Part shown: positions 1,064 through 47,590 of the stretch, piece by piece
Layout of the letters: every line of letters starts with the position of its first letter
Position numbering within the stretch: the stretch's first letter is position 1
From: Psammoneis japonica
Lineage: Eukaryota
DNA length: 64,000 nt
Reading direction: 5' to 3'
NCBI GenBank assembly: GCA_008632985.1
Contig: QPGO01000093.1
Location: forward strand, 124,001-188,000
Notes under the pieces: model-generated
The model's database searches: none
Told to the model about the DNA's origin: nothing
The model's input: only the letters and a program-made list of their open reading frames with translations
Translations under genes and position numbers: made by a program

Positions 1064-2614
1064 ATGTACCAGGGTCGTATGTAGGCCGTTTGTTACGGTG
1101 CCGTATTGCGCATCGTCTCATTGCTCATTTGCTGTTATCGGCATGAACTACTCCCAAGGCTATCTAGCACTGTAGAATGAATCTTTTATAGTATTGGGAC
1201 GTTTCGAGTATACCATAACAAAGCCTATAGTTACATAACTGCTACATAGCTCCTCATTCCATCATTCACAATCGGATGTGTTGATCCTTTTCTCTCGGCT
1301 CGATCGCGATAGCCACACATCGAACCACGACCCATGAACTATCACGCCAGGTCATTGAGCTGGTAGTCGTCCACCAGTAGTTACCGTAGGAGGCCAAAAA
1401 GAGAAAGGAGGATACAAGAAGTGAGAACATCCGTGACACAGGATTCAAGAGAGGCAACAAAATTGGAAACATCAATGCAAAAAATAGAAACATTCTCACC
1501 GGCAATTAACGCCAAGGAAGAGACACGACAGTACCACTGAGCACCGAGAGGTACGCCAAAGAATGCTACTGAATCCCCACCAAGCCCATTAATCAGCCTG
1601 TGTTTTCGATCCACGCTACGTCTTAAAGTAGGAGATCTTGCTAGAGGCGAAAACAAAAACTGCAATTGTTGAGTTACAGAAGCAAATTATGAGCAAAATC
1701 ATAACACCAACTTACCCAATTAACCTTTGTACACATTCTTTTGTGTCTCCTGTGTGTATGTGCTTGTCGCTGTAACGGTATTTGTCTCATGCCATTGCTA
1801 GAGGCATTCATACTATCGCGAACTGATGAAATCTGCGCGAAGTACAAGCCCCATTGAGTGAGTTTGAATGCCAACAATTAACAATATTATCACATGATCT
1901 TACCTCCTTGACTCAGTGTCACTAAATGAGTATAGCCAATGCACTCAAATCTACCCAAGCGGTAAGAAATCGACACAACCGTCCAAAAATCTCCAAAATT
2001 GTCATAAAACAGCGACGCCCAACCGAAAATGAGACCCCAGACTATCTTTGCCTCGAATCTCAGAGCTGTGGTCAAACCACGCCTCATATAGACACCAATG
2101 AACAACACCAAGGTATTGTGTGGACTGAGAACCTGCGTGATAACGAGGAAGAGCCCAATCCGTGAGTGAGCACATTTCTGGCAAAAAATGTGAAGCCATT
2201 TGTTACGAACGACAGAAACAATGGTTGTGCCACAAGAAAGACAATGCCATTGCAAGGCAATAACGAAAATACGCATAAGTTTCCATGTCATAACTTACAG
2301 GGCGCAACGGAGCGGAACATGCGACGATAATCAACGACACATGTCAGCACCTACCGAAAAAGTGACGATTTTGCACTTAGTCAGTCTCGGGGATAAATCA
2401 ATCAAATATTTACCAATTTTCTCCGTTCCAACACCATGGTACGCTTCAACAGCGAGTATCCGAACAACCACTGAACGGTGTAAGGCATAGCGGTCGATGC
2501 GCCGATGAAATCGATCATCGTCGGAACGGCCCATTTTCTGGTATGTTTTGTGTAGAAAGCTCTGTAGAGCGTTTCGCCAAATCCAGGGAGGCATGGTAAC
2601 AAATTTTGAGCCAC

Positions 2615-2713
2615 CGTCCGTCTTACTTCCGCGAGAGTCTATGAGGAGACCTTCGGGTGCGTGCGAGCGCGCGCGCGAAGAACGGTCGACGCATAGACTC
2701 ACGATGGAGAGTG
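2615..2713 (-). repeat. Right TIR of MULE-like element
   Basis: Reverse complement of 965-1063; the same peptides appear in opposite-strand ORFs of the track. Confidence 0.95.
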
Positions 2714-3576
2714 CTCCACTTAACTTGTGATCTGCGGATCCAATCCCCCGCGCATTTTGCGAATCAGTGCAGAACCGCAAAAGTGGCATGACGAGGAGTC
2801 CGTGGATTCTCCACGCAAGACTGCACAGGTTCTCCACAAATCAATGTTTTAAAACCCACTGCATGCATCATCAAGAGCTGCCAAACAACTTGACCCCACC
2901 ATGACAATGAAATGTGTGACGGCGTTGATGCTCATTCCGCCTTTTATGAAGCACACATGGTCGCCAAGAAACAACAACAAACAGCAAAAAAAAAAAACAG
3001 GCTCCTTTCCTTTGATGCAAGTGGCAAGTTCGCGATTGATTGTTGATGGCTGATCAATGAATTTGCAGCAAAACATGCCTTCAGCATGGGACACACAGCT
3101 TCTGATGACATGAGTTCATTGTTGTGGTTGCCTCATGTGACTCATTGGTGATTTTCACTCTGTGAGACTCGGAAATCGACCCGAATGTGCTGCATCATGG
3201 TCATCGCGGTCGATGACTCGAGATGTTGGTGAAAGCACATTTTCCTCGCACGTGAGCCACGCAGAAATCATGCAGAAAAATGGCTCTTATTTTTGGACAG
3301 AGGATCCATTTAAATTCGAGTGCAGATGCACAGCCAAATAAAAAAACACATGGGAAGCACTCTTTTCAGGCAAGTAAAAAAACACAAAGAGGGGAAAAAT
3401 GCAGCCGTCGCTCCGCAAGACTCAAGAGACAACACAAAAAAGGGAGGGCCGGCTTGCAATGGCATGCAAAGCAGTGCAACCACGGCACAGTGAGTGCAGG
3501 CAAACACACAACACAAAAAACAACAAAGAATTGTTGCAACTGTGCCTCAGAGACAGACCAATCTGAGCAAGTGGAT

Positions 3577-3890
3577 GGCTGATGATCAAAAGGCCGGCAG
3601 AGACATCATCAAGGTGAGAGATCGTGTCAAAGAAGAGGCTTTTCTGAGCATCGCACTCACACTTTGTGCAACAAAACAGGTGCACTGCACAAAAACAAGT
3701 TTCGCTGCAAGTTTTGCTGGGGGGTTGATGTTGCAGACGGCTGATGATCAAAAGTCTGGTGGAGACATCTTCAAGGCAAGAGATCTCGTGTCAAAGAAGA
3801 AGCTTTTCTGAGCGCCGCACTCACGCTTGGCGCAAAATGACCAGACGAAACAAACAAGCTGTGCAAAGACAAGCTTCACCATGAGTTTCA
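3577..3890 (+). repeat. Diverged tandem duplication (~162-bp period) within a degenerate coding remnant
   Basis: GGCTGATGATCAAAAG...GAGACATC..CAAGG..AGAGATC..TGTCAAAGAAGA.GCTTTTCTGAGC occurs at 3577 and again at 3739. Confidence 0.7.
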
Positions 3891-4730
3891 TCAGAGAATT
3901 GATGTTGCACAAGATTCAAAACTCACACCAGCAGCGTGGCCATTTCCAATGACACAGGGGCGGGACAAAACAAGAGAGCGACTCTCAGCTCTGATGGGCA
4001 TTGCGAACGAGCTTGAGAGCATCGCCGACAAGGGGCTCATGCAAAAGGAGGATGTCACAAAGAAGAGAAAGTGCGCAAGATGACTCAAGCACTTTGTGCC
4101 AAGCAACTCGTTCCCGGCAAAGGAGGGCGCAGGAGGAGACGATGCATGGCACCAAGGAAGAGCAGCAAGGGAGGGGATGGTTGCCGAGAGCCAACAAGTT
4201 CTTCAAGGAGCCGGTCATGGAGATCAAACGCAACATCACGAGTGAGCAACTTGGTTGACAGGAAGATTTGTGTAGAATGATTTCAGGCAGCCACGGAAAG
4301 CAAGCGGGGGAGGACTTCACGGCTTGGGTGACAAGGGGGAGACCCCACATGGTGAGCTGTGCCAAGGTCGGCAAGCTGGAGCTGATGGTGGTTTGGCAGA
4401 TAAAAACCCATGATTGTAATTTCGTTGTTGTCCAACTCGAGCATTCTTACATTGTAGAAGCTGCACTTTAGACGGCCACTTGAACATTTCGTGTGGATGT
4501 AAACTTCTTGAATTTCACCGTGCAGATTGGATGCACCTCCCTGGATTCGAACCCACGGACATTTGTTGGAGGTGCGCGACATTTTATTCGAACCAACGGA
4601 CATTTGTTCGTTGATGTGGACATTCATTTATTATGTCAATCACGACTGTTTGTACAAGAAGAGTCGAAACATTGGTTTAAAATTTCAAATTCAACGGATG
4701 CTAGACCTTCATCGACGAATTTAACACAGC

Positions 4731-7700
4731 ATGGAGCGAAGTGACGTCACCTCGCGAACACCGTTGGCCGTGTTGGACGACACCAACAATGGCGACAATG
4801 GCGGTTCCGATTCGACGCCCACGAAACCTCCGGCTAAAAGAGCAAGAGTGGAGACTCAAGCCCTCACCCTCTGCACCAAGAAGGAACAAAAGCCAAAGAG
4901 ATTGAGCGGGAAGACGTGCTGCAATTGCACCTTGGGGTCAACCTGCCAAACACGTGGCTGCTCATGCTGCAAACATGATTGACCATGCACCTCTTGCGTC
5001 TGCTTCCACAAGTGCAAGAACAAGGAAGGGCTCAAAACTTGTGGCACAAGTGACAGGAATTCGGACAAGAAACAACGGAAAACCTCAACCTCCCCGGAAA
5101 CCAGCCCACTTCAGCCGAAAATCTGTCAACTCATCTCCGACACCCCTGATGATGCCAACAAACAGAACAAACCCAAGGCCAACACCAAAGCCAACAAAGA
5201 AAACACCACGCCCAACAATCAAGCGAAGGACACTGATGAGGGCAGAGATGGTGAGGAGGTTGACACTGCCTCAAGGGGAAGAGAGCAGCCGGAAGACAAG
5301 GAGAGCTCGGAGGGAGCAAAAATTCCGTCACATGACGACCCCGACAATGCACCCAACGACTTCAATTCGGACGCGGAACAAATCATGTGCAAGGTGTGCA
5401 GCAAGACCCATCACCTCAATGATGGCTCCCATCTGGATGGTGGAATGTCGGATGACAAAATTTGGCAAAAGCTGATGCCCCATCCATCACAACGATGCGA
5501 CGTTCCGAACGGTTCCGCAGGAAAACGGTTCATCAGAACGTCAGCAGAGTTGCCACATGGAGTCAAGACGCGAAAGTGGAACTCGGAGAGGTTCGCAGTG
5601 TTCCAGGCAGTGATTTTGCAGCAGGACCGCAACGCAAAACGAGCCAAGGACATTGGAACCCTGCTCACCAGGTGCATGGATGACTGGGACGCAGATGAGC
5701 ACAAGATGTTGGTCCAAGCGACCGAACTGCTGCTTGAGAGCAATCTGAAGACCGTTCAGAAGGAGGAGACACCAGAGCAGCACGCCAAGACATTCAATGG
5801 AATGGTGCTGCGAGGAAACCCAAGAGGAGCAGTTGGGCACATTTCGGAACATGAAAAAGGTGGAGCACTCGCACCCGATGACATTGACGAAAAGACCAAA
5901 GACACCGTGTTTGAGGCACTAGAATCGAAACATCTGGACCCGAGAATTCTGGAAGAAGACCAATTTCACAAATTTGACGAACTGCCTGAACTCCAGGATG
6001 TCATGATCACCGACAGTGCTGTCAAGACCGTCGCACGACGACTGTCCGGGAGTGCAGGCCTTGGCGGATCCGATGCTGGTGCAGTGTCGCAGTGGCTGCT
6101 CCACTGCGGAGAAGCCAGTGGATTGCTTCGTGAGGTGTTGTGCATGTTCACAAACTGGCCAGCCAATGAATCGCCCCCATGGGCCGCCTGCCGCGCAATC
6201 ATGGCAAAGCGACTCATCGCGCTGGACAAAAACCCGGGAGTGCGCCCGGTTGGCACAGGAGAGGTGTGGCAATGAGCCATGGCCAAAGCCGTTCTCCTGG
6301 TTGCTGGAGCAGAGGCCAAAGAAGCCTGTGGAATGGATCAGCCATGTGCAGGTCTAGAAGCAGGCATCGAAGGCGCGATTCACATGATGAATCTCCTCTG
6401 GGAACAGCACAAGTTCGAGGATGACTGCGGCTTCCTCTTCGTTGACGCCTCCAATGGATTCAACGAAGAGAACAGAGTGCTAATGTCACACAACGTTGGA
6501 CACCTCTGGCCATCCGGCGCCAGGTTCACTTTCAATGGCTGCAAGCATTGGAGCATCCCAATTGTCCACGGACACTTTGGCACCGCCTTCGCACCATTCA
6601 GCAAGGAAGGTGTCACGCAGGGCGACCCACTTGGCATGGTGGCCTGTGGACTGGGCCTTCTCCCACTGGTCCACAAGTTGAATGACATCTGTCAAGATGC
6701 TTTCACGCCATGGTACGCTGACGACTCCGCTGCAGCTGGGAAATTCAACATCCTTCGGGAATTTTTCTTAACTCTTCGAGTCGAAGGACCCAAGCATGGT
6801 TGCTGCCCTGCCGCCAATGAAAAGAACATCCCAGCAGTCCCAGAACGCAACCTGGAAAGCACCAGGGCGTGCTTTGGAGACCTCGGCTTCACTGTCTGCT
6901 CAGGTGGCCGCTGCCTTGGAGGCTTTGTCGGAGAGACGGACGCACGCGACCGATGGCCAGCGGAGAAAGCCGAGCAGTGGACCTCGGTCGTCCAAGGACT
7001 CGCAAATGTGGCAATTCATCATCCGCAGACCGCCCATGCCGGTCTTCAAAAGTCCCTGCAACACCAGTGGCAATGCGTCCAACGGGCAGCAAAGGACTGC
7101 GGCAAATCCTTTGCGGAAGTGGAGAGCGCGATCCAGCACCAATTCCTTCCAGCACTGGTTGGCGAGACCTTGGCAGACGACGATCCGAGACTAGCCCCAT
7201 CTGCCCTCCCAATCAAATTTGCAGGACTGTCCATCCCTCGTCCAACGGAGTCTGCATCCCAAAACCATGAAGCAAGTGCTCTCACGTGCTCTCACATGAC
7301 AGACTCACTCTGCGGCCACTCAGATTTCTCTTCAGCAGTCCACAAGGACACCATGCTCGAAGTGAAGGAAGAAGCAGCCAATGGGAAAGCCAAGACACAC
7401 AAGGAGAAACTCAAGACAATCCTCCGGACTCTAACCGACCTAAAAGCCAGAGCCATCAAGTGCAGCACCAGCACTGGAGCATGGCCATCGGTGCACCCAT
7501 CGATCATAAACGGCACGGAACTCTCTTGTCTAGAATTCCATGATGCGCTCTGTCTATGACATGGCTGCACTCCCCCCAACCTCCCGGAGCACTGCGATGG
7601 ATGCACCTGCAAATTCTCCATTGCCCATGCCCTGCAGTGCAAAAAGGGTGGCCCAGTCATCTCACGACACGACGATGTGCGTGATGACCTCGGTGACCTA

Positions 7701-8552
7701 ATTGGAGCGGCCTTCAAGCCCTCCTGCGTACGCGACGAACCCCTCATTAACCCTGTTGGTCACATCTCAGGAAGCCCAGGCTCCTCCAACAACTCCCAAG
7801 GCAACACAAACTCCAACATGTCCAAGGATGGCGACCGCGGAGATCTTTTGTCCAAAGGATTTTGGGACAAAAGGACAGACACCGTCATGGATGTTCGCAC
7901 TCCGGACACGGACGCGAAGTCATGCCTGTCCAAGACACCGGAAGAAGTTCTGGAACAACACGAACAAGAGAAAAAGCGCAAGCACCTCAAGCCCTGCCTT
8001 GAGCAACGACGTCACTTCACTCCCTTTGTCGCATCATGCGACGGACTGTTTGGCAAGGAAGCCAAAGCAGCGCTGCGCAGAATCTCTGCAAAACTGGCTG
8101 AGAAATGGCAAAAGCCACATTCAGAGGCACGCGGCTACATTGACGCAAGAATGAGCATCACTTTGGCACGGGCGACTCACCGTTGCCTCAGGGGATCACG
8201 TGTCCCTTCATCCCAGATCAGCTCAAGACGTCCTCAATGGGAGGATGGAGCTGGTCTGTCCCTTTGCAAACACCAAGTGACCCCCACTCGCACCAGACCA
8301 CTCATGCGGAACGATTGCTGACATGCTGCACACAGAGACCATCAATGCCACGCCAAGATGACAACAAAAACCTGGCAACATGCTGACAACGGCGCCAGAA
8401 TCGATTCGGATCTCACGCGCACAGCCCACAAAAACTGCACGCGACAACCACCCCTTGCTCGTATGACTGCATTAACTGCACAACATCCATTTTCTGATTT
8501 GTGGCAAACAGTCGTGATTCGTGTTAAATGGCCATGATTCATCATAAACAAA
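4731..8552 (+). mobile_element. Degenerate CRE-like non-LTR retrotransposon (Cys-rich N-terminus, RT, zinc knuckle, restriction-like endonuclease)
   Basis: RT motifs ALDKNPGVRPVG, AGLEAGIEGAIH, VDASNGFN, GVTQGDPLGM, WYADD and LGGFVG. Followed by CDGC...HALQCKKGG...RHDDVRD (7592-7685) and the RLE-type RGDL...MDVR..DTDA...EKKRKH...FTPFV. Broken by TGA stops at 4980, 6273 and 7557. Possible decayed (TAAA)n tail CATAAACAAACA near 8543. Ends are approximate. Confidence 0.88.
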
Positions 8553-8779
8553 CATGTGTGCGGGCTCTCACAAATGTCATCACAAACAATGTCCGTTGGT
8601 CAGACCATGAGACAATTCATGGAAACGGGCCTCTGATGTCCATTCATGTGCACCACAGCGAAGCACTGAGGAACAGCATTGGGTTTTCCTCCCACTCTAA
8701 ATGCAAAGGACTGTTCCAAGCATTGGGCCGGTCGTTCCAAGGCTGCAAGGCATGGAGGAGCCCTGACGGTTAACTCTTG

Positions 8780-9540
8780 AAGGTCGGCCGATGGACAAGT
8801 GGCCAGAGTGCAAAACTGAATGCTGCAGCCCAATCCACAGTCCAAAATCAAATGCATCGCACACTGTCACACAGTTTGACATTGTACACTGTGCTGCATT
8901 CTAAGCGCACCTGTCCCCATGAGCAACATGTCAACGAACAACGTCTTTCACTGCCTTCTTGACGCTTTGAAAGATGAGTTTGTGGGTTTCCTCATCTTCA
9001 TTTGATGCAATGCCACAAGCAACAATGTGGCCCTCTTGATTCAAACTTGCAACCTTGATTGGCATTAAACCAGCCTTTTCATGTGTGCAACAGCATGACG
9101 TGTCGATGGCAAAAAAGAAATCCTGCCCCGGCGCAAGTTGACAACATCCATTTGGCAGAAGATTCTCTGTAGAAAAAGCACAACAAAATCGCTCCATTTT
9201 GCTGTTGCAAAAATGCTCATCCCCGCAAAGGCATGTTGTGTGCTTGTCAAATGCATCAAGATTCATGGAGTTGTGCTTGCATCCCTCAAGTGTGTCCACA
9301 ATGCATCCCCAGCCTGCTCCACACTCCCTCCATTGGCAAGGTGCAACGTCAACACTTTCTTGGCTTGTTTTGAAAGCATCCTCTTGGCCTTCCACTGCAC
9401 ATCCTTGTCAAGATTCAAATTCTGTCCAAGGCCCCTTTGGAGCAATTGACTCAGACGCAACTCAGCAGGGTTGGTGTGTTGCACGCATTCCACCATGGCG
9501 CACTTTTCTGTTTGGTGTGTGCATGGGTGAAAGATCATGC
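8780..9540 (-). pseudogene. Degenerate MULE-type transposase fragment
   Basis: FFFAIDTS(C)...LMPIKVASLNQEGHIVA(C)GIASNEDEET(H)KLIFQSVKKAV resembles the MULE transposase core once Cys/His are read as former Tyr. Confidence 0.5.
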
Positions 9541-10274
9541 ATGACTCGCCATCGCTTTCCTTTTTAAAGAAACAGTGCAGCCGGGACAGGAAGAACAGAT
9601 CCCCCTCCTGCTCCCAAAGTTCACATTGGCCCAGTCATGCACAGATCCTTCACTGTTGCAGCCAGGGTGGGCGCAGCAGTGCAAGCATCTGCCAAAGGTC
9701 ATCAGAGGAGTTCTCTCCTGCGCCGATGCAATCCCTCCACATTTTCTTAAAGAAATTGAGCAGGACCAGGTGAACCTGACATTGCATTTGCTTTGTGTGC
9801 CAGAGGAAGGTGACTGCCTTGTTCGTTAGACTGCAATGGAGGGAAAATGTGCTCCCCCCCAGTTTGTGTTGTTCAATCTCATGTGGGATGTCTTTTCTTT
9901 CATCCTTGGAAGAAATCCATGGGTCAGCCAACAAGGCTTGGTGCACTGTCATTTGATCTTCCATGTGTGACACCACCTGACCAAGGAACACGCGCCAAAG
10001 CTGCATTGTTGTGTTGTTGCCAAGGGCAGTTTGAAAAAGTCCTTTGACAAAGATTCCCCGAGACCCGTGTCAAAGTTCATGGTGTGGCAGAAGTGACAAA
10101 GAAAGATTGGCAGGTGCAGCAGCTCATGCAGCTTTTGCAGCTTCCGCCCAGCTCTTCATGTCTGGGGGGAGAAATGAACCACGCGAGACACCAGCAGCCA
10201 AATTTTCTTTCAGATTTTGTTTGGATCGGCTCTCTCTTTTGGTGGGTTGCAAAGTTGATGCCATGCATGGAAGG

Positions 10275-12190
10275 TCAGCAAGTCTCTCTTTTTTTTCTTT
10301 TCCATTGGTTGCGTGTGGTGTTCTCTCCTTCGTCTTCGGATTTGGTGTCATCATGTTCTAAAGAATCATCCACATCCGTCTTGCAGGGAGCATCAGTTTC
10401 ATCCTCACTGCACTCTTCCTTGTCCACTGAATGCTTGTTGTTGGGATTGCACTCTTCCGGAAGTTGCAAATGATTGACTTGGAATTTGGAAATGCTGCAA
10501 CCCTCTGGCAATGGAAGATCTTCTTTGTCTTCCACACAGAAACAAGATTTGCACACTTCTTGGCCTTCCTTTGTCAGAAGTAGAAGATGAAATGCAAAGG
10601 CCATGCCCACCCAGTGATGAGAGTTTAGGAAGGCAAGTGAGGTCACACCGCCTTTGAAAGTGGTGTTTGCAAGAAAGAGTGGTGAGTTGATCTGTGTTTC
10701 CCAAACATTTTTCCACCAATCTGTCAACCTCACTTCTCACAGAGTTGGTCATGCTGTTGACAAAGACACCAATCTCCCTTTTTGGGGTTCAATTTTGAAA
10801 TGGGTGCATCATGTTGCTGGCAGCAGAAAGGGTGACCCTGAGTGGCTGCTCACCAAAATCTGCATTGAGCAAGCAGTTGGTGGCAACATTGTGTTGCTTC
10901 ATGCAGCACAGCTCTTGCTGCCAGTGACTCCTCTTCTCCTTGTCATCAAGGCTGGCATTGTTGACCTTGTGCTGAACAAGCAACAGATCACTTGCACACA
11001 CGAGCTTGCAATCCTTCCAGGGGTCATCAAGGTCATTGCATCCTGTCACGCAAAACCTGGAACAACGTTGGCAACAATTCTTGGTGCCATGCTGACCCAC
11101 AAGACAGTCGCCACTCTTTGCATCCCCATCAATTAGGGCCATTGTTGGAACCACATGCAGGTGGCAGATCATGTCACCCCATTGCACGCAACAGCAGAAG
11201 CCACCTTGTTCCACAATGTCAAGAAGTGGCTGGAGTGTTGTGCCCAAAACCTTGTGACAGTCATGAAGGCCGTGCCTCTTCTCCAACTTGTGCACATCAG
11301 ACTGCTGTTTGGCTGTGGAGGAGGACATTTTCTCCAAGTCAGGCATGCAGCCAAGGACTTGCCACTTGGCCCTGTCATGCCATTGTTTGCAGGCAACATG
11401 TGCCAAGGCAGCTGTGACAGGTTCTCCACAAGAAGATCCCATGGAAGTGGTTTTTCCCGTCTTGTCCATGCAAACTGTCAAACAATCAAGAAACTGTTTT
11501 TGAGGATCTGTGACTCTGGCTGTGCATGTCCTTCTGTGCCACTTGCTGGCCAAAACACACTTGTTGTTGTTGCCCTTGGCAACATGCATTCCAAATGGAT
11601 TGTTTGGGTCTGTGAGATTGCTTTTGGTTGCCCATGTGCAAGTGTCTGACATGAAGGATTCCCAGACATCTTTGAAATTCCACTGCGGAACTTTGACAGT
11701 TGTCTCACCACGTTCCCCAGCTGCACTTTCCAGGTTGACTGGAATCATCTCCCACTCCGAACCAGGAGATGATTTGTGGAGGGTCTCCATCAGTTTGCTC
11801 CAGCATGGCATTTGCATCCCAACCTGGAATGTGCTGCCACAGTGTCTTTCAATGAATCCAGCAATTTTGTCATGCAGGTGTGCATTGGTGCTCTGCAGTC
11901 ATCCACCAGCTTGCAAAGCTCAACGCAGGCACCGTTGAGGTTGCTCAGAGATGGCAAGCTGGCAAATGCATCTTCGGATGGGTGCCGGCAGACCTTTCCC
12001 AATCTGCTGTCATTGATGAGTGATGCATCGTTTGTGTCTGATGATGCAAAATCTCATCATTCGGTGTGGTTTTGGAAGCCTCCATGGTGACATCGGGTGA
12101 TGCATCAAACAAGTTGGCTTCTGACTTGCTCTCATCCAACATCATCTCCAACGACATGCACTGGTGCTCCTCTTTGTTGCACTGCAACCC
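10275..12190 (-). pseudogene. Degenerate Plavaka-like (CACTA-related) transposase
   Basis: ORF 10789-11817 has (C)MDKT, GEPV, WQVLG(C)MPDLE, IDGDAKSGD(C)LVG..CQRCSR.C and MMH motifs. ORF 10275-10733 continues with F.GGVTSL...VGM. No Tyr in 342 aa. Confidence 0.65.
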
Positions 12191-12997
12191 AAGAGGGGAA
12201 ACATCATCATCAAAAGGTGCTGACCATGGTGCATCAGTTGGGTCCTCTTCAACAAGCAGTCAACCTGAGTTGGATGTTTGCAACAGATGCTCCCCACTGT
12301 GACCGCCTCAACCTGGGGAGTGACACAAAAGTTGTCTGATGATGAAGAAATGTCCAGTTGCTCTGACAGCATTCCATTCAATTGGACATTCCTGGAAGGA
12401 GAAGTTTGACCCACAACTTTAACGGAGACGTCCGGTGATGGGGAGGGGGGCAACAGGCTCTCAACGCGACAAGTTGGCCTTCTCGTGAGTGACCAAAAAA
12501 CGTTGTGGGTTGTGATGGAAATGGGTGAGCGTGCATGTGAATGACCATTTGCAACACGGACATGCAACAGCCTCACCCTGCTGAACACCATTGCTGTCCA
12601 TTTTGAAAAACGCAAAGTGTTGTGAGTTGCACAACTGCAGTTGTGGAGCAATGGCCAAACTTGGTTAGATCATGGAAATTGGGTGGATTGTGTTGGGAAG
12701 CAAGGAAAACACGACACAAAATGGTGCAAAAACACAAGTTCATTGCTTTCTTTGCGTGAATGAAAACATTTGCAGGTGCAAATGAATTGCATGCATTGGG
12801 ATCATTGATCACTTTGAGCAAGGAAAGGAGAAAGCAAGTTGTGATGTGTTGGTCACAATCATTCTGGGCGCACCTCACAATGAATTTTGATCACTTTGCT
12901 GCAAACCATGAACCTGGTTGCACAAAATGAGACAGATCATTGGCCCATTGACCAAACAACTGCTGGCAAAAATTCAAGGAGATGACAAATGTGATGG

Positions 12998-14203
12998 ATG
13001 AAACAAGAAAACAAATTGCAGAAGTGGAGTGTGGTGCAGCTTGAATCTGGGAGAAGGGAACACACTGATGACAATGGGGGGTGCTGGATCAAGGAGGGAA
13101 GGAGGGAACTCACAGATGACCCGCACAATTGCCGTGACTGCATGGACATGTTTTGCATGTTGGACAGTGTTCAATTTTGTGTGGATGATGTGGAACTCTG
13201 GTGGATGTGGAAGGAACAATGGAAAAACAAGTGCAGGTTGATGGTTTTTGCATTGGCCCATGTGAGAGAGTGGAGTGACAAAGCAGTTGAGTGCACACAT
13301 GCCAGTGCCCACATGTTCTCCATGAACAATGAGATCAACTGGGCAAATGCAAACATTGATCATGGGAAAAATGCACACAAGTGCAAGGAGCATTGGGGCT
13401 GCATTGTGACCCACCAGGACAGGCAAGCTGAGAAGCATTGTGTCTGCAGTCATTGCCACAATGATGGAGAGAGTGAAGTGAGAGATGAGTTTGCAGTGGG
13501 ATCAATGGGGGGCAACATGAAATTAGCCATGGACAGGCAAAACATTCATGCTTTGAAGGACATGTCCAGCATCAGCTTGCCAACTTGTGGAACAGACAAA
13601 AAAGGAAGGTGCGGGCCACTCGGAGTTAGATCCAAGTGGGGAGGCACTTGCGGACTGGTGATGGACAAAGAGGTGATTGTCTTTGATGCATTGAAACTGG
13701 CAAAGTGGTTCCAGCATGAAATGCTGCAGGACAATCATGAAAAGCTGTGGTTTTGTGACGGAATGGAGTTCTTTTGTTTGTCACCCAGGACAGTCAATGG
13801 TTGGATGATGGATTTGGTTGAGAAGGAGAGTCAAGGTGGAACTCATGAGCCACACCATCCAAATGAGAACAAGAGATGCTGCAGGGCAGAGAAACTCTGG
13901 CGTGATCACATGGACCATTTTGTGAATTGTGTCAAGCCAGAGACATTGGCTTTCAATCGCATGACTGATTGTTCTGACATCGGGCAGCACAGCAAGTTTA
14001 AAATTGCAAGTTTGGAGGGAGATGCATTGGGGGAAGTGGACCAGACAGGATTGTGGTGCCAAAATGCTGGTGGCACTCCACCACCAGTGGGACGACGGGA
14101 AGGCGGGAACTGGTGTCATTTGTTTGTTGCATTCAAAATCTCTTTTGTGGGTGCCATGGTTTCCAAATGCCTTTGTGAGTTGGACAAATGTGTGTGTCAT
14201 TGA
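12998..14203 (+). pseudogene. Degenerate ORF of unknown function, probably cargo or accessory gene of the Plavaka-like element
   Basis: 401-codon open frame with protein-like composition but no Tyr and excess His/Cys; oriented divergently from the transposase. Confidence 0.4.
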
Positions 14204-14456
14204 ATGAGCTGGAAATGGATTTAGAAATCACAGTTGTGCAGATGTTTGAACTGGATTGTGCATCAACAGAAAATTTTCAAAAACAACAAAGAATGGTGAA
14301 ATTCATTTTAAAAGAATGTGCAATCACAGTCATGGTCATTTGCAAGTTACATGGCTGTAAAAAGAACAGAGTCATTGGTGAGAGCATCAGGTGTTTGGTG
14401 TTAAAAGAGAGGTTTGAAATTTTTGCAATGGCAACAATCATCAAGGGAACAGAGGC

Positions 14457-15825
14457 GTGCAGCTGCCCCTCATTTGCACAACATTGTCAGAGGCAATGGC
14501 AAGGAAGAAGAAAAAAACAGAGTGGGGAAGTGGCTGGAGATCAACCAACCAGCCAAAGGCTGGCAGCGGCATTGATGCGGGCAGGAGCCAGTGGAGATCA
14601 CCAGTCTGTAAAGAGGGAGGTCAAAGAGGTGGCACAGAGAGAGCCATTCCCAAAGGCAAAGTTCCTTGTCAAGGCAGACATGGAGAGCAGTGGAAAAGTG
14701 TTGCGGCTCATGTGAAAAAAAAAACAGCCGGTTGCAATTTCAGCATGCAAGACTGGGCAGGATCGTGGGAAGACTGGGCAAAGAAGTGCATCATGAATGC
14801 AACCAATGTAAAAGGGAACACCGTCACACAGACGATGCAGAAGAGCGCAATGGCTGGCAAGTGTTTTGTGATGCATGGCATGTTGAGTGCAGCAACACAC
14901 TCAACACAACCCTTCTTTGGTGCAGTCATGATGACAGAGCAGCAAGCAAAGCAATTGCATGGTCAGAAGAGAGCTGCTGTAAAAAAAAGAGGAAAGAGGA
15001 AGAGGAAGGGTCAAGCGGCAGATGAAGCTGTTCCTGGTGACATGGGAGGATGAGACAGTGGACATCATTGTGGGGGAGAAGTGAAGGAACAAGGAAGCAC
15101 ATGTGCGGTTCTACAAAAATGTCCTTAAATTCACAAAGAGCACTGCGGTGTGGAGAAAGAAGGTGGAGTCGGGTGAGACCAAGGCTCCAGATCTAACTGC
15201 GGCAAGCAACAAGGCTCTGGGGCTGTTGACATTGGAAAACTGCTGGAAGATTTGGGAGCACAAGGCCCTTCATGACAAGACTGTTGAAGGGGGAGCAGAC
15301 ACAGGGGATGAAGAGGAGGAGGAGGAGGAGTCAAAACCAGCGCCCAAGTGTGCAGACCCAGTGCAACAGCGCAACTCATGGAATGATGAAGGAATGTTGC
15401 AATTCAACACCCCACTTGCACAAGTGAAGGAGGACAGGGCAAGTGAGAAAGGTGTGCAGTTTGACACATGGCAGAGTGGCGGCAATGAGAGGGAGAGCAA
15501 TGAAAAGGTCGAGGGAGCAAAAAAGAAGAAAATGCCGGTGGAGAAGCAGGTGAGGAAACAGGCAATGACAGAGCTTTCCAGCAACAATGAGGAGGACAAG
15601 GAAGAGGAAACGGAAAAGGACCTGCACAACAAGGACAGCAAAGAAGAGGAGGAAGGAAGTGAAGCAGGAACCAAGGATGAAGAAGAGGCAGAAATGGAGC
15701 AAACTCCAGTGCAGAGAGGGAGGGAAGCCTTTTGTCAATGCCAGAATGGAAAACTGCAAAGCACTGCATTGGTGTTCATTGAAAACACTTGCAAACCAGG
15801 AATGCAGAAATTCGATGTCAATTGA
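14457..15825 (+). pseudogene. Degenerate accessory gene of the Plavaka-like element with acidic C-terminus
   Basis: FPKAKF, then SNKALGLLTLEN(C)W.IW...WNDEGMLQFN...VKEDR...F. I associate this pattern with accessory ORFs next to Plavaka-type transposases (from memory, unverified). Frameshifted. Confidence 0.45.
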
Positions 15826-15908
15826 GAGATGTCTCACACTGTTGGTTGATGAACAACTTGTGCCACACATTCTAAAAAAAACATTGAATGTGATTGTCAG
15901 CACAAATT

Positions 15909-16076
15909 TGTGGACTGCCAGCATTGGGACAACATGATGGATGTCTGGGACAGATGACAATTGTGCGCTGGATGAGAAAGAAAGTGAACAAAGGAGAGAT
16001 CATCAGATCTCTCCATGCTGTCTGTGCCAGTCTGTCCAACACAAGGGAGTGCGCTCCCCCTCTCAGATGTCTGTCA
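15909..16076 (-). repeat. 3' LTR of Copia copy 1
   Basis: TG...CA on the minus strand; colinear with 21625-21792 and 34795-34963; preceded by the purine tract AGGGGAGGG (16077-16085, minus). Confidence 0.9.
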
Positions 16077-19000
16077 CCCTCCCCTGATGAGCAATGCAAT
16101 GCTTGTCAAGGAAGAGAACATCTGAAAAAAAGAGGACCAGAACAGCAGAACAAAGTGAGGGCCAAAAATTTTGCCCAAGACTTGACTCACAAACACGACA
16201 ACAATCAACAGCAGTGTCCCATCAAGTGGCAGGCATGGCAGGAATGAAGCATCCAAACCACAACCTTGGTCAGCACATCAGCAGGGTTGATGACACCCGG
16301 AATGTGTCGAGTGACAATTTTGCCCGCCTCGCGCCAGTCTTGGATTGCAAAATGTGAACATCAATGTGGCGGGAATGCTCCGCAGGCACCTTGTGATTGA
16401 CCATCTGGGTGGCAGAAGAGTTGTCAACATGCAAGGGAGCAGGTTCACATTGGGGAAATCCCAGCTCTTCAAGTGCCATCCTGAGATTCAAAGCCTGCTT
16501 CACACTGGCAACAGCAGCAACAAGAAATTTGGCTTCTGTGGAGCTGGCAGCTGCAATTGTCTGAGTTTGGCAATGGCAATCAACCACAGCACCAGCAAGG
16601 ACATGTGCATGTCCAGCAGCAGAACGCAGATGCCAAAGTTTGTTGGCATGTGCTGCATCAACAAAGCCAAGAAGTTGGAACAGATCATCAGCACAAGGAA
16701 ATTCTGGAAGAGTTGGATCCAGTTCCAACCATTCAAACAAAGCAAGGAGGAAGACCTGGATTGTGCTTTGTCTTCTTGTGCATCAAACCCCCCAATGTTT
16801 GGTGCAGCGCAAATGCTTTGCCACGCACTTGAGAGAGGTGCAGTGAATCTCAGTGGGACAACCAATGTCCAAACAACAACAAGTGCGTGCAAAAATAAAT
16901 TCACCCACAACAGATTAACAGGAAAAAACCTGGAATTCCGCCAATGCTTCACAGTCCAGGGTGCCTTCAAAGGGGCCTTCAGCAGTGTGCAGTTCTGCAA
17001 TGCTTTCAACCAGGATGGGTGCAGCCTTGAAGTCACTGTGTCAGATTTGTCAGCAGCAAGTGAGTCCCAGCTGTCAGTCTTGAAGACTTGGTCTAAGCAG
17101 CTTGCACATTTTGTCATGATGGAGTCCTTGTTCTACACCACATCAATGCCATTGAACTCGGCAACCAAACTGAGATGCTTGAAAGGAGGCAAGTCTTTGT
17201 TTTCCATTTGGAGTTCCTTGCCAACATGATCACAGATTGCTTTGGCAACATCCTCTGAGGGACAAACAAGAGCAAAGCCATCAACCTGATGGAGCAACAA
17301 TGCTTTGACACCATCACAAGTGCCAGAGTGGACACACTTCTTGTTGTGGGTGGTGTTGCGGAAGAGAAGTTTTGCCTCCTTGAGTGTCAAATTGATGTGC
17401 TTTTCCCATGGAACACCAGCTTCAGGATGGCCCTGGAGAGCATGCTTGAGCAGGAGAACAAAGTTGCATGTGACCTTCTTCCCCAAATGCTTCTCATGCC
17501 ACACAGCACATGCATCATCTGTGGCAACATAAACAGGTGCAGATGGACCTGGAGAGTGAGCATGAGCATCATGAGCATCACCACCAAAAATGCAATGCAA
17601 CAAGGCAGCACCAAGAGCAAAGAACATCTTCTCAATCAATTGGTCAACACAAGATGAACACGTGGAGGTCAACTTGTGCAAAGCTGGTGGGGCAGACTTT
17701 GAGCCATTTCCACACTGCCTGGAGCAACATTGGCCATCAGGTTTCACCATGTGATCCCAACACAGATGCACAGCAGTGGCGCCAGGAGGTTGTGGTTGTG
17801 GAGGACCACACATGCCGAGTGCAAAGAGTTGGTCCAGTTGATGGTGTTCACCTTTCTCCCATTCAGGCCATGCATCCAATTTTCTAAGCTTGGATTGGGC
17901 AAGTTGATCAAGAGCAGCTTCCTTGGGGGTGAGAGAGCAAGAGCTGATTGCATTGAGATGTGCATGAAAGTCTTCCGTTGGAACAGATTGTTCCAAAAAA
18001 TCATCTTCAGGATGGAGAAGAGCCGCAATTGAACACGCATCTTCAAGGGCAAGTTCCGGCACATGTGAGTCATCTTCCATGGAATTGGGGTCAAATGACT
18101 CTGCTTCCTCAAAAGCTTTGTTGAGAGTTTGTGAGTCCAAATGTCTTTCTGGTGCAAAAGTGATCTCAAAAGTTGGGATCTCTTCATGGAAGAAATGTGA
18201 CAGTGCAGCTTCAGCATCCTTTGGTGTGAATGCTTCATGCTTGTTGACAGAGACAATGTGAGCACCCATGATCTTGTTGCGAGTGGCACAAAGTGAAGGA
18301 AAAAAAGAAGCTGCAGGACTGCGCTGCTTGATTTCAGATGCATGGGCATGATCCATCAAAGCACACTGGGAGAAGCCAAGCCCACAAGTGGGATCTGTGG
18401 GAGGGTGTTTCATGGTGCAGGTGACAGTCTTGGCAAAAGGATTTGAGGATGAAGCAAACATGGGAACAGTTGTTTCCTGTGTTTCAGCCAGGAAAGGCTG
18501 ACCATTTTTCACATGCTGCAAATGGGTGGCATTCAGGGAAAGCCTGTCAGATGACAAATCATTCATGCCTTCATCATGCTGCACATGCTCAGCCCTCTTG
18601 ACTTTGTCAGTCATGGGGTCCCACCAAAGAACGTTCTTCAAAGTGTTTGGCAGATGGCCAAGGAATGCCCCTTTCTTTGAGTTTGTCCTGAATGTGGCTG
18701 GATGAGCAGAAGGTTGTTCAGCCCATGCTTGGCATCCAAAAGTTTTCAACGTAGAGAAGTCTTCAATCTTTCCAGTGGCAAGGGTGATCGGGGCAGCATC
18801 TTGATCTTTTGAAGGAGTGGCATTCTTGACATGCAGGCAATGACAAAAAGCACAGGGCCAGAATCTGATCGGGAGGTTGGCACCAATTAAAAATGCGCAA
18901 ATCGCATTCTCAACAGTCAAATGTGAGTGTTTGACAGGTCCACATTGGTTGGAGGTGCCAGTGCCAGAAGGACACATGTCATGCTGGAATTCACATTCAA

Positions 19001-20686
19001 AGATGTCACGAACTTTTGGATTTTTGTGTGATTCCCCACCTTGGTCCACAAAGACATGTTTGTCATGACAGTTTGGCAAATGTTGATCCAAGAATCAGCA
19101 AAGCCACTTGAGAGGACTGGCTTTGGAAACCCATGCAACCCCATGGAGCATGCAAGTTTTGTGGTCGCACACACTGATCCAACATGTTTCATCTTTGAAA
19201 CCAAGATGGTCAGACTGGCAGTTTTCATTCTTTTAGAGACTTGACCAGCAAAAGCAAAATCCACAGCAAGACCTTGGCATGGTTGAGTTGCCTTTTGAGT
19301 TGCATTGGGTCCAGCAGCTGTCTTGACTCATTTTGCCTGGATGCGTGCTGGACAAACATCAAGCACCGGGTTGGCATGACAAAACTTGGGAACTCCTTTG
19401 ACACACTTGCGAGCATCACACAAGCAATGATCACTGGGATGACCAAGATGGTGATGCCACAGCAGAAATTCAGTCTCAATTTTTAGAGAACAGACCAGAG
19501 CAGGAGCAGGCAAAGGGGGCAAGACTTCATCAATGGAGTTGCACTTCATCAAAAACAGCTCAGTGTCCATCACAGGAGGGGCAGTTGAGTCATGTTGGAC
19601 ATTGACACAGAACGCAGCATGTTGGCATGCATCTTCAAGATCAGCAACCAAGGTTGGATTGGACATTGGAAGTGCTTGATGTCTGGCAGCCTCTGACGGG
19701 GGAACCAAAGCTTGGGCAAAGACCTTTCCATGGCAAAGAATGCCATGGACAACCACCTTGTGGGCATTGGTCAAAGCAGCACATGTGCAAGCACTGTCAG
19801 CACAGGTCTTCTCAAGGAGCTTGGATCCAATGGCATGGGGTTTAAAACCAGAAGCCCGCACAAAATCACATTCATCAATCAAGGTGGAATGCAGACTTGG
19901 GTGGCAAAAAGTGCGCACAAAAAGGAAGCCGTCTGCATTCTCTGCAGGCACTTGCAAGCAACCATGGCCGTGGGGAATTGCATCAGGAGATCCTTTGGTG
20001 GCAGGCAGCATCTTCAAAGGGCATGGGTTGTCTGGTCCAAATGGGGTGTGGGCATGAAGAAGGTTCTTGTCTCCAGCGCAGGACACCCAAGCACCTGTGT
20101 CAATCTGTGCATGGCACATCGATGAATCTTGGAGCACATGGACCAAATTGGGAGGAAGTCAAATGGAGTCATCTTGAGGGCAGCACATCCATCACCGTGG
20201 CAGACCCATTGGCGGACAATGTCAGGACACTTGGAGTCAGCTGGAAAAATCCCAACCTTCTGGATGTGCTGGAAGATGGTCAACTTCATCCAATCAAGTG
20301 GTGCGTGCATGCAAAGTGGTGGGTCATCTGTGGAATCATTGCCACTTGTGAAACCTCAATTGCTGCCATCCTTGACAAAACACCACAAAGGATGCATGTG
20401 TGCACCACAAGCTGAAGCTTGTTGGGTTGCAGTTGTGTGCCATGCACGGATTCCTTGAGGAGAGATGTCATCACAAGTGAGAAGAGCATGAAGAAACAAC
20501 TTGGCATCCCAATTGGTGCAATGGACAGAAAGAGAGCCATTGGCGCAAGTGTGAGATGTTCTGCACCATCTTCATGATGAAGATTGCCAGACTTGTGGGG
20601 TGTCAGTGATTTCCCTGACACTGTGTTCCCTGCTTCCTTGCATTGATGGCAAGCCAACACATCCTTGGGGAGTCCTTTTGGGTTGA

Positions 20687-20688
<2 letters not shown>

Positions 20689-20721
<33 letters not shown>
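20689..20721. repeat. (GT)16 microsatellite inside the gag region of Copia copy 1
   Basis: Directly visible; absent at the homologous position (~35855-35865) of copy 2. Confidence 0.95.
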
Positions 20722-20722
<1 letters not shown>

Positions 20723-21624
20723 CACTGGTTGCAGTCAAGGCAGAAGCCACAGTGGCAGCAGTCATGGCAGAAGATGCAGAAGATGGTGCAGGAAGAGTGG
20801 TCTTCTTCAACATGTCGTCAGTCACAGCCTTCTCACACTCTTTTGGACCGGGCAAATGGGTGGCCAAGGCCTTGGCAAGATCTTCAAGGTTGGCACCTGC
20901 AGCGGCAGCCAGTGGAGGTGCAGAACTTGAGGCATGACATGACTTTGGATGTGGAGTGTCGGGTGTGTTGTCCCAACATGCATGAGATTGAAAATCAGGA
21001 CTGAAGAAGAGACAGATGGATGCAAACACATGTTGTCACAGCATCCTGACCATGCAAGATTGCCTTGATCATGGCCTTCTGAAGATTGGCATGGTTCAGA
21101 CAAACCTGAGAACCTTGAGGAGCAGCCACAAATGGAGGAGCCTTGTCAATGATTGATGCAATCCATGTGAGATCCTCAATCAGCGCAGCTTGGGGGGTGG
21201 TGAGGTCCTGAACAATCTCGCGAGATGGAGTGTTGGAACAGCATCACTCTTGAGGCCTTGAGGAGCAAATCCATCTAGAAGATCTTCAGGAGCAGGGATC
21301 TCATCTGAACAAAGGGTGTTCAGGTGAATGTGGGCATCAGGTGAGAGGTGATGTGGCTTGAATTTGACCAGCATGGGCACGATCTTGGTGAAATTGACGG
21401 CGTTTGTGTGTTCTTGTTGACCACGGTTGCAAAGGAAAAAATTAAGTTCCTGCACAGAGCTCTGGCATGTGCTCTGTGGTGGTTGTTTGATCACAAATCA
21501 AGAGGCAAAAAACAGCTGTGACAATGATGACGATTTCAACGGAGGAAAGTTGCCAAACCACACAACGGGCATTGCAGCACAGCAGTGCAGAGAAAGACAA
21601 ACAGCGCACTGCTGCTCACAACCT

Positions 21625-21792
21625 TGCAGACTGCCAGCATTGGGACAATTCAATGGATGTCCAGGGCAGATGACAATCATGCACCAGATGAGAAAGAAAG
21701 CGAGCAAAGGAGAGATCATTGGATCTCTCCATGCTGTCTGTGCCAGTCTGTCTGACACAAGGGAGTGCACTCCCCCTCTTGGATGTCTGTCA
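21625..21792 (-). repeat. 5' LTR of Copia copy 1
   Basis: Colinear with the 3' LTR; followed on the minus strand by GGTTGTGAGC, a mutated Copia-type PBS (GGTTATG...). Confidence 0.9.
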
Positions 21793-22032
21793 CAAATTGT
21801 TTTTGTCAAAAGGCTTTTTAGTGTTGAAGTCTGCAGGCAAAAAAGGCAAGCACTCTGAAGGGGAAACAGGGTGCATTTTCACAGTTGAAGGTTTCATCTC
21901 ACAGGACACAGTGGGGTGCAAATTGTCACCACAACAGTCAAGGCTTGAAACAATGGAATTTCATGCCGTGACAGATTGAAAAAATTGCCATGAGAAAGGT
22001 GGTCTGGATCACTGCAATGCATGCTCTGATGC

Positions 22033-22611
22033 ATGTCAGCCACATCTCATCAACGTTGTCATGTCTGTGCTTGCAAGAACACCAAGTGCCCAGCAAAGCG
22101 GGGTGACAACTCCATGAAAGGCATCTTCCTTGGGCACATGCCGGACCCAACCAAGGACATTGTGTGGTGTGATCCAGTGTCTGACCTTGTCAAGATGGAC
22201 ACACATTTTTGCCTCAATGAAGGTGTGAATGATCTCCCCCATGGCCAAACACCACCGAGCATCATTCATCTTCAATGGACACAGAATGGCGAACTTTTTC
22301 CAGCTGAGGAAGAGGAGACATCAATTGAGAAGTTTCACTTTGCTGGCAATCCTTTTGCCCAGACCCTCAAGTTCAAGATGTGGTGGTCTGCATTGGATCC
22401 AAAGTGTGGCATGACTTTCAAGACTGATGAGCTCTTCAACCATGTGTGCTTGTCTGATGTCAAGTGTGGCAGCTCTGCGGCATGCCTCTTCTCCTCTCAC
22501 AAGGCGCTGCTCGGAACAAGATCTGATTGGATCCACAACCACTGGAGGCAGGTTGTGCACCTGTCAATTGTTGACACCATTGGCAAAGAAGATTTCATGA
22601 AGAAGCAATGA
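22033..22611 (+). mobile_element. Fragment of a related Copia pol (post-integrase SH3 region)
   Basis: KGIFLGHMP...IVWCDP..LVKM.TH..LNEGVNDLP...NGELFPAE is paralogous to the same region in copies 1 and 2. Confidence 0.75.
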
Positions 22612-22774
22612 TGTGCACTTTGCCAGTGTTGGGGCACTCCAGTACAGATGTTCAGTTCGCTTAGAGACGAGTATGGAAGGTGAGGGAGGGGGTAGTTCGT
22701 TTGTGATAATGTATGCTACTGACGCATTTTGATGCAAAGTGTAAATGACAAAAGTATGAAAACTACCTCATGTC

Positions 22775-28700: not shown

Positions 28701-28830
28701 TAACCTCACCTGAGAAACGGGAAATGCGAATGACATTAAGTCTTGACCGAGCAACTTTTTTGTCAATCCAACAACTTGTAACTTACCGTACCTCATACGT
28801 CAATGCTTGTTGAATGCACCCAGAACGGAT
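22775..28830 (-). pseudogene. Large intron-containing DUF1800/DUF1501-type gene, disrupted
   Basis: C-terminal SDFARTLSPNSGGGTDHAWGGNYF.GG.V.GG...G.YP...GRFIPTTS and upstream GGCDSFNMFVP (DUF1501-like). HYPNTAPFVC.RL.QRFGISNPS.RY and EPLLKV (DUF1800-like). Intron at 23225-23309. Several apparent frameshifts or stops (~23900-24000, ~24890). The 5' end is unresolved, with N gaps and duplications. Disruptions could be assembly errors. Confidence 0.75.

Positions 28831-43199: not shown

Positions 43200-43200
<1 letters not shown>
41435..43200 (+). mobile_element. Tandemly duplicated degenerate gag C-terminus (CCHC knuckle) of another LTR element
   Basis: 41437-42050 matches ~42595-43190. CWKCDKVRHVRRDCP at ~42753 is a CX2CX4HX4C knuckle, with a frameshifted counterpart at ~41596. 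Confidence 0.65.

Positions 43201-47590
<4,390 letters not shown>

Follow-up and report, generated by a model that had tools for sequence, protein, structure and literature searches.

Dense transitions that arise at one dinucleotide of repeats after insertion and kill transposons are familiar from fungal RIP, a premeiotic, RID-dependent process that changes C to T, chiefly in turning CA to TA, and so raises TA. Deamination of adenine in chromosomal DNA is known mainly from engineered base editors. In the alga Bigelowiella natans, mutation-accumulation lines have revealed A>G and T>C changes at TpA only, in integrated viral DNA, with a local rate of roughly 1000-fold and with activity in some lines only (Mettrop et al., a bioRxiv preprint of 2026, 10.64898/2026.01.13.699255). 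The available part of that paper also reports that TpA-poor coding sequences are enriched for transposon domains, proposes an ADAT2-type deaminase as a still unproven cause, and contains none of the words “diatom”, “LTR” or “CpG”. For diatoms, the accessible portion of a further source describes CG methylation of transposons and the enzyme DNMT5, and indicates that DNMT4 enzymes are possibly related to RID (PMC9998398). A search of the literature, chiefly of openly accessible papers, turned up no diatom study that describes TpA erasure, and TpA-specific rewriting is to date on record from a single unrelated alga, Bigelowiella.

The window analyzed here, a stretch of 64,000 nucleotides from the diatom Psammoneis japonica, contains a dead Ty1/copia retrotransposon (Table 1) in which traits of the group are present, namely LTRs, a TSD, a primer site and an integrase region ahead of RT. 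It has in common with other Ty1/copia elements (CoDi in diatoms) the LTRs, the 5-bp TSD, the tRNA-Met primer site and homologues bearing PF07727 (11 of 11 polyproteins, 1279–2106 aa, 31–47% identical), while its LTRs end in TG...AA on the element strand, rather than in the usual TG...CA. The pol region consists of four tblastn pieces interrupted by stops and frame changes, with a Pfam match to PF25597 and one to PF13976 below the cut-off. The LTR pair had been described in the original prediction as 168 bp long; the pair is present, but each LTR is one base longer, an end that is supported by the flanks of sister copies, and with these ends the TSD is intact as claimed. A search for a second LTR of the inverted copia copy found none. 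The reverse-transcriptase remains to the left of the element, which we judge from motifs to be of the non-LTR class, are followed by DNA (9,000–15,800) for which there was no Pfam identification.

Table 1. Positions of the copia element, its parts and neighboring features, counted from the first letter of the window.
Feature	Position	Strand	Remark
TA-erased domain enclosing the element	2600..22640	.	TA/CG counts per 500 bp, TA positions, o/e profile
Reverse-transcriptase element remains	4983..8321	+	homologues with PF00078
Left TSD, CAAAT	15903..15907	+	same 5 bp as 21793-21797
Dead Ty1/copia element	15908..21792	-	
3' LTR, 169 bp	15908..16076	-	no TA remaining
3' LTR swap-site starts	15911, 15935, 15946, 15962, 15969, 16004, 16037, 16064		
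Broken copia pol region	16214..20128	-	pre-integrase, SH3-like, part of RT
Primer binding site	21614..21623	-	matches the genome's own tRNA-Met (L116) in its anticodon arm; TA step reads CA
5' LTR, 169 bp	21624..21792	-	no TA remaining
5' LTR TA-type swap-site starts	21651, 21662, 21685		
5' LTR CG-type swap-site starts	21627, 21678, 21720, 21753, 21780		
Right TSD, CAAAT	21793..21797	+	same 5 bp as 15903-15907
Second copia copy, inverted	34795..41430	+	right end approximate; carries third LTR, ~34795-34964

Comparison of 15909–16076 with 21625–21792 shows 23 differences in 168 positions, 22 of them transitions and one a transversion. Eight TG/CA swaps, in line with the “about eight” anticipated, make up 16 of the 23; two (15935/21651 and 15969/21685) come in addition to the six originally named. 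Random placement of 23 transitions on the LTR gives a mean of 0.68 swaps and a maximum of 5 in 20,000 trials, compared with the 8 observed. The remaining differences are two CG/CA, one CG/TG and four others. The CG/TG and CG/CA pairs of the original prediction are there, with few other changes, but they probably do not go back to old CG, since the CG form occurs at those places in at most 2 of 56 LTR copies. That these differences stem from sequencing or polishing errors at modified bases has a negligible chance of being right. Public contigs of run X1, which contains 0.80 of sampled words, match the element in pieces of 395–831 bases with 0–3 differences, though X1 may be the assembly's own sample and its library type is unrecorded; none of the six in-element differences listed restores TA, and the duplicated copies L056 and L057 have the same TG/CA outcome at 99% of 151 sites.

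The ancestral state of the swap sites was read from 56 related LTRs, including the window's three, and, for the window element, from copies that are about 20% diverged from it. Each swap site has a single third state, which is CG (in 23–44 of the 56 copies) at five sites and TA (in 18–39 of the 56) at three, and no sister carries CG at these latter three. Both of the palindromic ancestors that had been proposed thus occur side by side, and the caution that the LTR pair by itself cannot separate them was well placed, as TG/CA swaps alone are evidence of neither process. Five of the six swaps first named are CG-derived, and this pair mostly shows CG decay, which makes it a weak showcase for TA loss. 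Of the 56 LTRs, none but the window's three has lost all TA and all CG at the diagnostic columns, which places the pair among the most decayed. Across 33 LTR pairs, swaps are found in 32 (128 in total), along with 67 differences of TA versus TG or CA; in 21 family pairs there are 47 swaps at TA-type columns and 10 at CG-type columns, with 99 of 426 TA and 200 of 310 CG kept.

It is worth considering whether ordinary 5mC decay alone could lie behind all of the swaps, as CG is the third state at five of eight (five of the six named) and several intact C5-methylase frames are present in the genome, among whose methylase matches DNMT5 was not identified. Diatom CG methylation, which would itself have to be assumed here, accounts for the CG part and leaves TA untouched. 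We consider decay of 5mC alone hardly credible given the three sites with TA and never CG and the 67 TA-versus-TG/CA differences, and CG decay is insufficient to explain the pattern. CG at every swap site, the outcome that would have told against the original prediction, is not what the sister copies show.

The proteins and the primer site point in the same direction, with changes that cannot begin from CG. None of 30 conserved Tyr is kept in the element, where 12 read His and 11 Cys, while Trp (15 of 15), Asn (14 of 16), Lys (14 of 18) and Phe (26 of 36) are mostly kept; Arg is kept at 8 of 49. The second copia copy keeps 1 of 30 Tyr (12 His, 13 Cys), and the reverse-transcriptase remains read Cys or His at five of six. 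In 23 copies compared at 31 conserved Tyr positions, the 705 readings include 345 Cys, 227 His and 28 Tyr, and both His and Cys are seen at 28 of the 31; other readings comprise 75 Phe, confined to 5 positions, and 12 Trp, confined to one. The TA of the primer site, which is fixed by the tRNA, reads CA at 16 and TG at 10 of 26 places. No Tyr-poor homologues were found in other species (0 of 120 RT, 0 of 11 copia) by searches of a kind that favors intact proteins.

Loss of TA is several times faster than loss of CG. In the interiors of two copia families 6.2% and 12.5% of TA-type sites are kept, compared with 40% and 69% of CG-type sites, where the TA-type class includes sites with TG and CA only (104 of 156 and 122 of 160). 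The loss amounts to roughly 60–220 times background per LTR copy, depending on the background chosen. A>G and T>C are restricted to TpA, other adenines being spared: where the preceding base is A, C or G, A>G occurs at 3.8–8.5 per 1000, similar to C>T in CC (5.9–9.2). CG changes at 36–42 per 1000 against a background of 2–9, with an excess of TG and CA and a small flank effect (66–72% and 36–44% kept across purine/pyrimidine flank classes). The relative rate of TA loss depends on the 3' base (T 3.9, C 2.4, G 1.5, A 1) and is about twice as high with a 5' A as with the rest. LTR sites outside the context fit agree, as ATAT and GTAC keep 0–1 of 53–55, and the slow contexts CTAG and CTAA keep 8–39 of 54–56. 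Slow contexts also largely account for the higher TA of the family A LTRs, 0.24 vs. 0.03–0.09 inside.

These values set the process apart from fungal RIP, with which it shares dense post-insertion transitions at one dinucleotide and the killing of transposons. RIP creates TA from CA, whereas TA is removed here (element o/e of 0.03 for TA, 1.91 for CA and 1.73 for TG), and C>T in CA is only 1.6–2.1 per 1000. Nor are there strand-coordinated runs, although single rounds could be hidden from this test by saturation: in the interiors z reaches at most 2.8 across 16 tests, where the effect is 0.5 points, and in the LTRs neighbor agreement is 0.489, identical to the 0.489 of column-shuffled controls. 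Neighbors within a copy being no more alike than in shuffled controls, we rejected strand-coordinated or processive hits. A duplication trigger as in RIP was also rejected, because a tandem duplication at 27290–29205 (93–98% identical) retains 33 shared TA; its 800 columns hold 5 TA differences and 19 others, which, as one main control, leaves room for a small excess.

TA could also be lost as a by-product of repair, if T:G mismatches from 5mC decay recruit a Pol eta-like error-prone polymerase, with mutation of A:T pairs close by. The two losses occupy common domains and are correlated between LTR copies (rho 0.56), a relation that age alone would also produce. Pol eta favors TA and has AA as its other target. 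However, AA is at background here, local clustering is absent, and TA is 80–90% gone where about 70% of CG is kept, such that TA hits exceed the lesions supposed to trigger them, all of which makes the repair account quite unlikely.

The two strands are hit equally, with a sense/antisense ratio of TA loss of 0.99 (0.87–1.12) once flanking bases are modeled. This ratio bears on A-to-I RNA editing or reverse-transcriptase error before insertion, to which one might attribute the raw lean towards Cys on the coding strand. The lean disappears in the model; in Tyr codons a pyrimidine always follows the A. Family A copies do share outcomes slightly above independence (0.59), while concordance in family B is 0.54, LTR partners differ from each other, and two near-identical duplicates with common flanks differ at 10 TA and 95 CG sites. 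A pre-insertion origin is accordingly very improbable, as the original prediction had argued, and its central claim, that palindromic dinucleotides of the inserted DNA were mutated on one strand or the other, holds up in both the LTR pairs and the strand ratio.

In the genome at large, TA o/e is bimodal across 197 sampled and unannotated 1-kb bins, 120 of which (about 60%) are TA-poor. Nearly all CG-poor bins (84 of 85) are TA-poor as well, and 24 of the 120 TA-poor bins have CG at ≥0.6. Within the window, copia and RT-element DNA is TA-erased and gene-bearing DNA has a TA o/e of 0.4–0.7; the erased domain ends sharply near 22,640 on the right, its left edge being approximate. In the reverse-transcriptase remains TA is lost (o/e 0.05–0.17) and CG mostly retained (about 0.7). 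Protection at element edges was considered and dismissed, since the TA that LTRs retain shows no significant relation to TA in their flanks (rho −0.10 and 0.27), with flanks that are nearly all TA-poor.

We are thus highly confident of a two-process pattern, CG decay plus TA loss, both ending in TG or CA. Our best explanation of the whole, which we favor with moderate confidence, combines 5mC decay with adenine deamination at TpA in silenced transposon chromatin. A copia element would insert into silenced, transposon-rich chromatin with two identical LTRs. CG would then become TG or CA, presumably by deamination of 5-methylcytosine given that diatoms methylate transposon CG, and TA would become TG or CA on both strands equally, site by site, sparing gene-rich DNA. 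This distribution suggests chromatin targeting, and a host enzyme steered to the same chromatin may deaminate the A of TpA, giving hypoxanthine, a base read as G on copying. Since the LTRs were identical at insertion, hits on opposite strands of one site would leave TG in one LTR and CA in the other, and since every tyrosine codon contains TA, permanent inactivation of the element is the likely effect.

For the chemistry we lean somewhat towards adenine. Sequence cannot separate A>G from T>C, which are the same base pair viewed from opposite strands, and all counts would fit equally if, with the same pattern and targeting, a modified thymine paired with G or an abasic site were followed by C insertion. 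Outcomes are nearly all transitions, the Phe and Trp readings resembling lineage differences, which suits this alternative; against it, bypass of abasic sites usually yields transversions too. Chemistry on T or through an abasic site seems unlikely to us overall. The Tet_JBP profile matched nothing in this genome and was silent in every control genome too, and is thus uninformative.

Three profiled enzyme families revealed no expanded deaminase family in the genome. There are two genes with an A_deamin domain and nine PF00383 matches, among which we read one as TadA-like and one as ADAT2-like (L102), the latter presumably an ordinary tRNA enzyme. L102 has HAE and PCxxC as well as the Asn named in the Bigelowiella paper. 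TadA editors prefer a 5' T (with a gain of only 25–52%), favor a 3' C and disfavor a 3' A (PMC8989541), a loose likeness to our case, where a 5' T is all but obligatory and T is also the most favorable 3' base. The closer parallel is Bigelowiella, where, as far as the available text goes, TpA likewise changes only to TpG or CpA, on both strands, at the DNA level and in foreign-derived regions. There, in a rhizarian, real-time measurements cover two viral regions in which TpA persists (rho 0.45), whereas here TA is near extinction (o/e 0.03 in the element) and its loss extends over about 60% of sampled bins, alongside CG decay, with a measurable flanking preference and a loss expressed relative to background.

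Should the cause be an enzyme, adenine in chromosomal DNA would have a natural deaminase. That such a DNA adenine base editor, strictly TpA-specific and directed to the silenced chromatin of transposons, rewrote over half of this genome is a tentative proposal that we hold with some reserve; if true together with Bigelowiella, it would make mutational genome defense common to two SAR branches, opposite in direction to fungal RIP. The flank rule offers a fingerprint against which candidate enzymes and the Bigelowiella mutations can be compared. Dating by LTR divergence breaks down in such genomes, given the share of swaps among the differences of this pair, and dead elements can evade profile searches, as illustrated by the RT domain of this element, which the Pfam profile search did not call.

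The element carries the paired LTRs and intact target site duplication of the original prediction, its start lying one base from that predicted, with CAAAT present at both outer borders. Its interior matches 11 long polyproteins carrying the copia RT family PF07727 (31-47% identity), with tblastn returning four separate pieces, and a primer site adjoining the 5' LTR matches the anticodon arm of a tRNA-Met from the same genome. The host is probably a diatom, judging from the sequence, because named homologues of window proteins come only from Synedropsis, Attheya and Cyclotella (to which we take the protein label CCRYP to refer). On its own strand this copia family has the termini TG...AA rather than TG...CA, both in the element and in the genomic copies L046, L050 and L051, while a sister family (L072) has TG...CA. 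Five short elements (L066-L070, 2.6-3.1 kb) share the same LTRs, at least four of them with the primer site, and are probably non-autonomous derivatives.

Position and strand of the element and its LTRs in the window
Feature	Position	Strand	Remarks
LTR retrotransposon	15908-21792	minus	LTRs and matching CAAAT flanks
3' and 5' LTRs	15908-16076, 21624-21792	minus	169 bp each

Comparison over 168 bases shows 23 differences between the LTRs, of which 22 are transitions, and the expected swaps (TG in one LTR, CA in the other) are indeed found: eight of them take up 16 of the 23 differences, as against a mean of 0.68 and a maximum of 5 when transitions are placed at random (20,000 trials). The element has 13 TA steps (observed/expected, o/e, 0.03) and 66 CG steps (o/e 0.19). 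Contigs of the public sequencing run X1, which may be the source sample of the assembly, align to the element over 395-831 bases at a time, with 0-3 differences per piece; six differences are listed within the element, of which three oppose CG to TG or CA, and TA reappears in none.

Whether the swaps descend from TA or from CG had been left open, and a survey of LTRs (81 matches at 56 distinct places, one duplicated pair included) indicates both, with the caveat that the element is ~20% diverged from its sisters outside the swap sites. The sister copies hold CG at 21627, 21678, 21720, 21753 and 21780 (23, 39, 44, 34 and 40 copies; TA in none) and TA at 21651, 21662 and 21685 (39, 18 and 28 copies; CG in none), so that CG ancestry at every swap site does not hold for these 56 places, even though five of the six examples originally named fall in the CG group. 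The predicted CG/CA differences at 21682 and 21768 exist, in columns occupied by both TG and CA apart from a single TA and a single CG per column, and their CG is therefore probably a later gain. Only three of the 56 LTRs, the three in the window, have neither TA nor CG left at the diagnostic columns, which means that the element's pair is an old one in which the slower process is over-represented; what it chiefly records is CG decay superimposed on TA erasure.

The direction of change can be fixed from outside. At conserved positions (residue present in at least 8 of 11 homologues), the element keeps none of 30 Tyr (12 His, 11 Cys) and the second, inverted window copy keeps 1 of 30 (12 His, 13 Cys), while the element retains Trp at 15/15, Asn at 14/16, Lys at 14/18, Phe at 26/36 and Arg at 8/49. 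The best 10 genomic matches keep Tyr at 14 of 301 positions, although 64% of Arg are kept. Both His and Cys occur at 28 of 31 Tyr positions among 23 copies, so hits on different copies were independent. At the primer site, the TA fixed by the tRNA reads CA at 16 and TG at 10 of the 26 places examined (omitting two further pattern matches judged not to be primer sites), and an unrelated RT element at 4983-8321 has Cys or His at five of six conserved Tyr. Internal stops in 44 pol matches are nearly all TGA, with TAG seen once, the outcome expected if neither TAA nor TAG can survive.

Tests of 42 regions for self-repeats gave 33 scored LTR pairs, one duplicating another; one gappy pair was skipped, and eight regions had no pair or one of another family. 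Their 5,349 columns contain 128 swaps, 67 cases each of TA and of CG against TG/CA, 35 other transitions and 21 transversions, with 28 TA and 124 CG steps common to both partners. In 21 pairs of family A, one of two sets of related copia copies (excluding L047 and L057), 11 TA-type columns, one of which may be an old CA, account for 47 swaps and eight CG-type columns for 10, with TA retained in 99/426 and CG in 200/310. Relative to a background of 1.3% (33 pairs) or 4.8% (family A, inflated by aligning to a single reference), loss is ~60-220-fold for TA and ~18-67-fold for CG.

Interior alignments of family A (18 rows, one dropped) and family B (9 rows, three diverged ones dropped) show TA-type retention of 6.2% of observations (160 sites) and 12.5% (156 sites) and CG-type retention of 40% and 69%, where columns with TG and CA alone were scored as TA-type, which is safe only since CG sites mostly retain some CG. 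Adenines outside TA change at background level. A strand model of 316 sites (60 bootstraps; copies not fully independent) gives relative TA rates of 3.9 (3.0-5.0), 2.4 (1.9-3.0), 1.5 (1.1-1.9) and 1 for T, C, G and A after the A, and of 1, 0.57, 0.55 and 0.47 for A, C, G and T before the T, with a sense/antisense ratio of 0.99 (0.87-1.12). LTR sites, kept outside the fit, follow the same context order. Given this flank preference with equal strands, RNA editing is not needed to explain why Cys outnumbers His, and no strand-coordinated runs were found in interiors or LTRs. In L046 (G000:C108:70000-77400), the LTRs have only five differences, all TA against TG/CA, and six CG in common, while the interior keeps 6/160 TA-type and 120/243 CG-type sites; flanking context accounts for part of the TA gap but not for the CG gap, for which possible causes are gene conversion or protection of the LTRs.

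The element lies within a TA-erased domain that spans ~20 kb and ends sharply near 22,640. Sampling of large contigs at round positions (20 segments of 10 kb each) gave 197 bins; their TA o/e has two peaks and lies below 0.2 in 120 of them. Nearly all CG-poor bins (84/85) are also TA-poor, but 24 TA-poor bins retain CG, which argues that TA is lost first. A tandem duplication at 27290-29205 retains TA (33 shared, 5 differing) at a background divergence above that of the 33 scored LTR pairs, so duplication alone is no trigger; a 162-bp repeat, with four of nine TA differing, is too small a sample to judge. RIP was rejected, as the direction of change is wrong for it and the duplication control goes against it. 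Two copies, L056 and L057 (contigs C337 and C82), either a recent duplication or two alleles, are 97% identical over ~9.9 kb, flanks included, and differ at 95 CG sites, 10 TA sites and 18 swaps, so both processes were recently ongoing. Long Tyr-poor frames also occur in other stretches that have lost TA and CG (9000-15800, 41600-47000 and 61500-64000), and none of those tried was identified by Pfam. A 135-bp dispersed repeat (28105-28240) inside TA-normal DNA has copies in at least 15 other contigs, 83-99% identical.

The TA changes thus occur in DNA, after insertion, on both strands, at TpA only, and are flank-dependent and domain-confined. The same TpA-only signature is described for integrated viral DNA of Bigelowiella natans in a preprint that suggests it reaches transposons too (Mettrop et al., bioRxiv 10.64898/2026.01.13.699255). 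A literature search for TpA erasure in diatoms found no report, and the available text of PMC12344493 leaves TpA unmentioned. TA erasure here is a genuine variant, genome-wide in extent, of a process with a single earlier description; it places that process in a second SAR lineage and adds a new flanking-base rule.

CG loss would be 5mC decay, given the DNMT5-dependent transposon methylation of Phaeodactylum (PMC9998398) and several intact C5-methylase frames in this genome. TA loss would be adenine deamination in the same chromatin as CG loss, although T-directed chemistry would also be compatible with the sequence. As regards deamination, TadA-derived editors, which favour T on the 5' side and work less well with A on the 3' side (PMC8989541), match the context preference here only loosely, and the deaminase set of the genome is ordinary-looking only. 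Three C5 methylase frames (L090, L091 and L092; contigs C301 and C297) sit in TA-erased DNA (TA o/e 0.07-0.10) and are therefore probably cargo of mobile or viral elements. Another (L093, contig C34), in TA-normal DNA, has upstream on the same strand a chromodomain-like frame scoring just under the Pfam cut-off, and is possibly a chromatin-reading methylase. A single frame at L101:313-1785 (minus strand, contig C79) joins a zinc deaminase domain to a 2-oxoglutarate/Fe(II) dioxygenase, and the predicted protein is probably metabolic.
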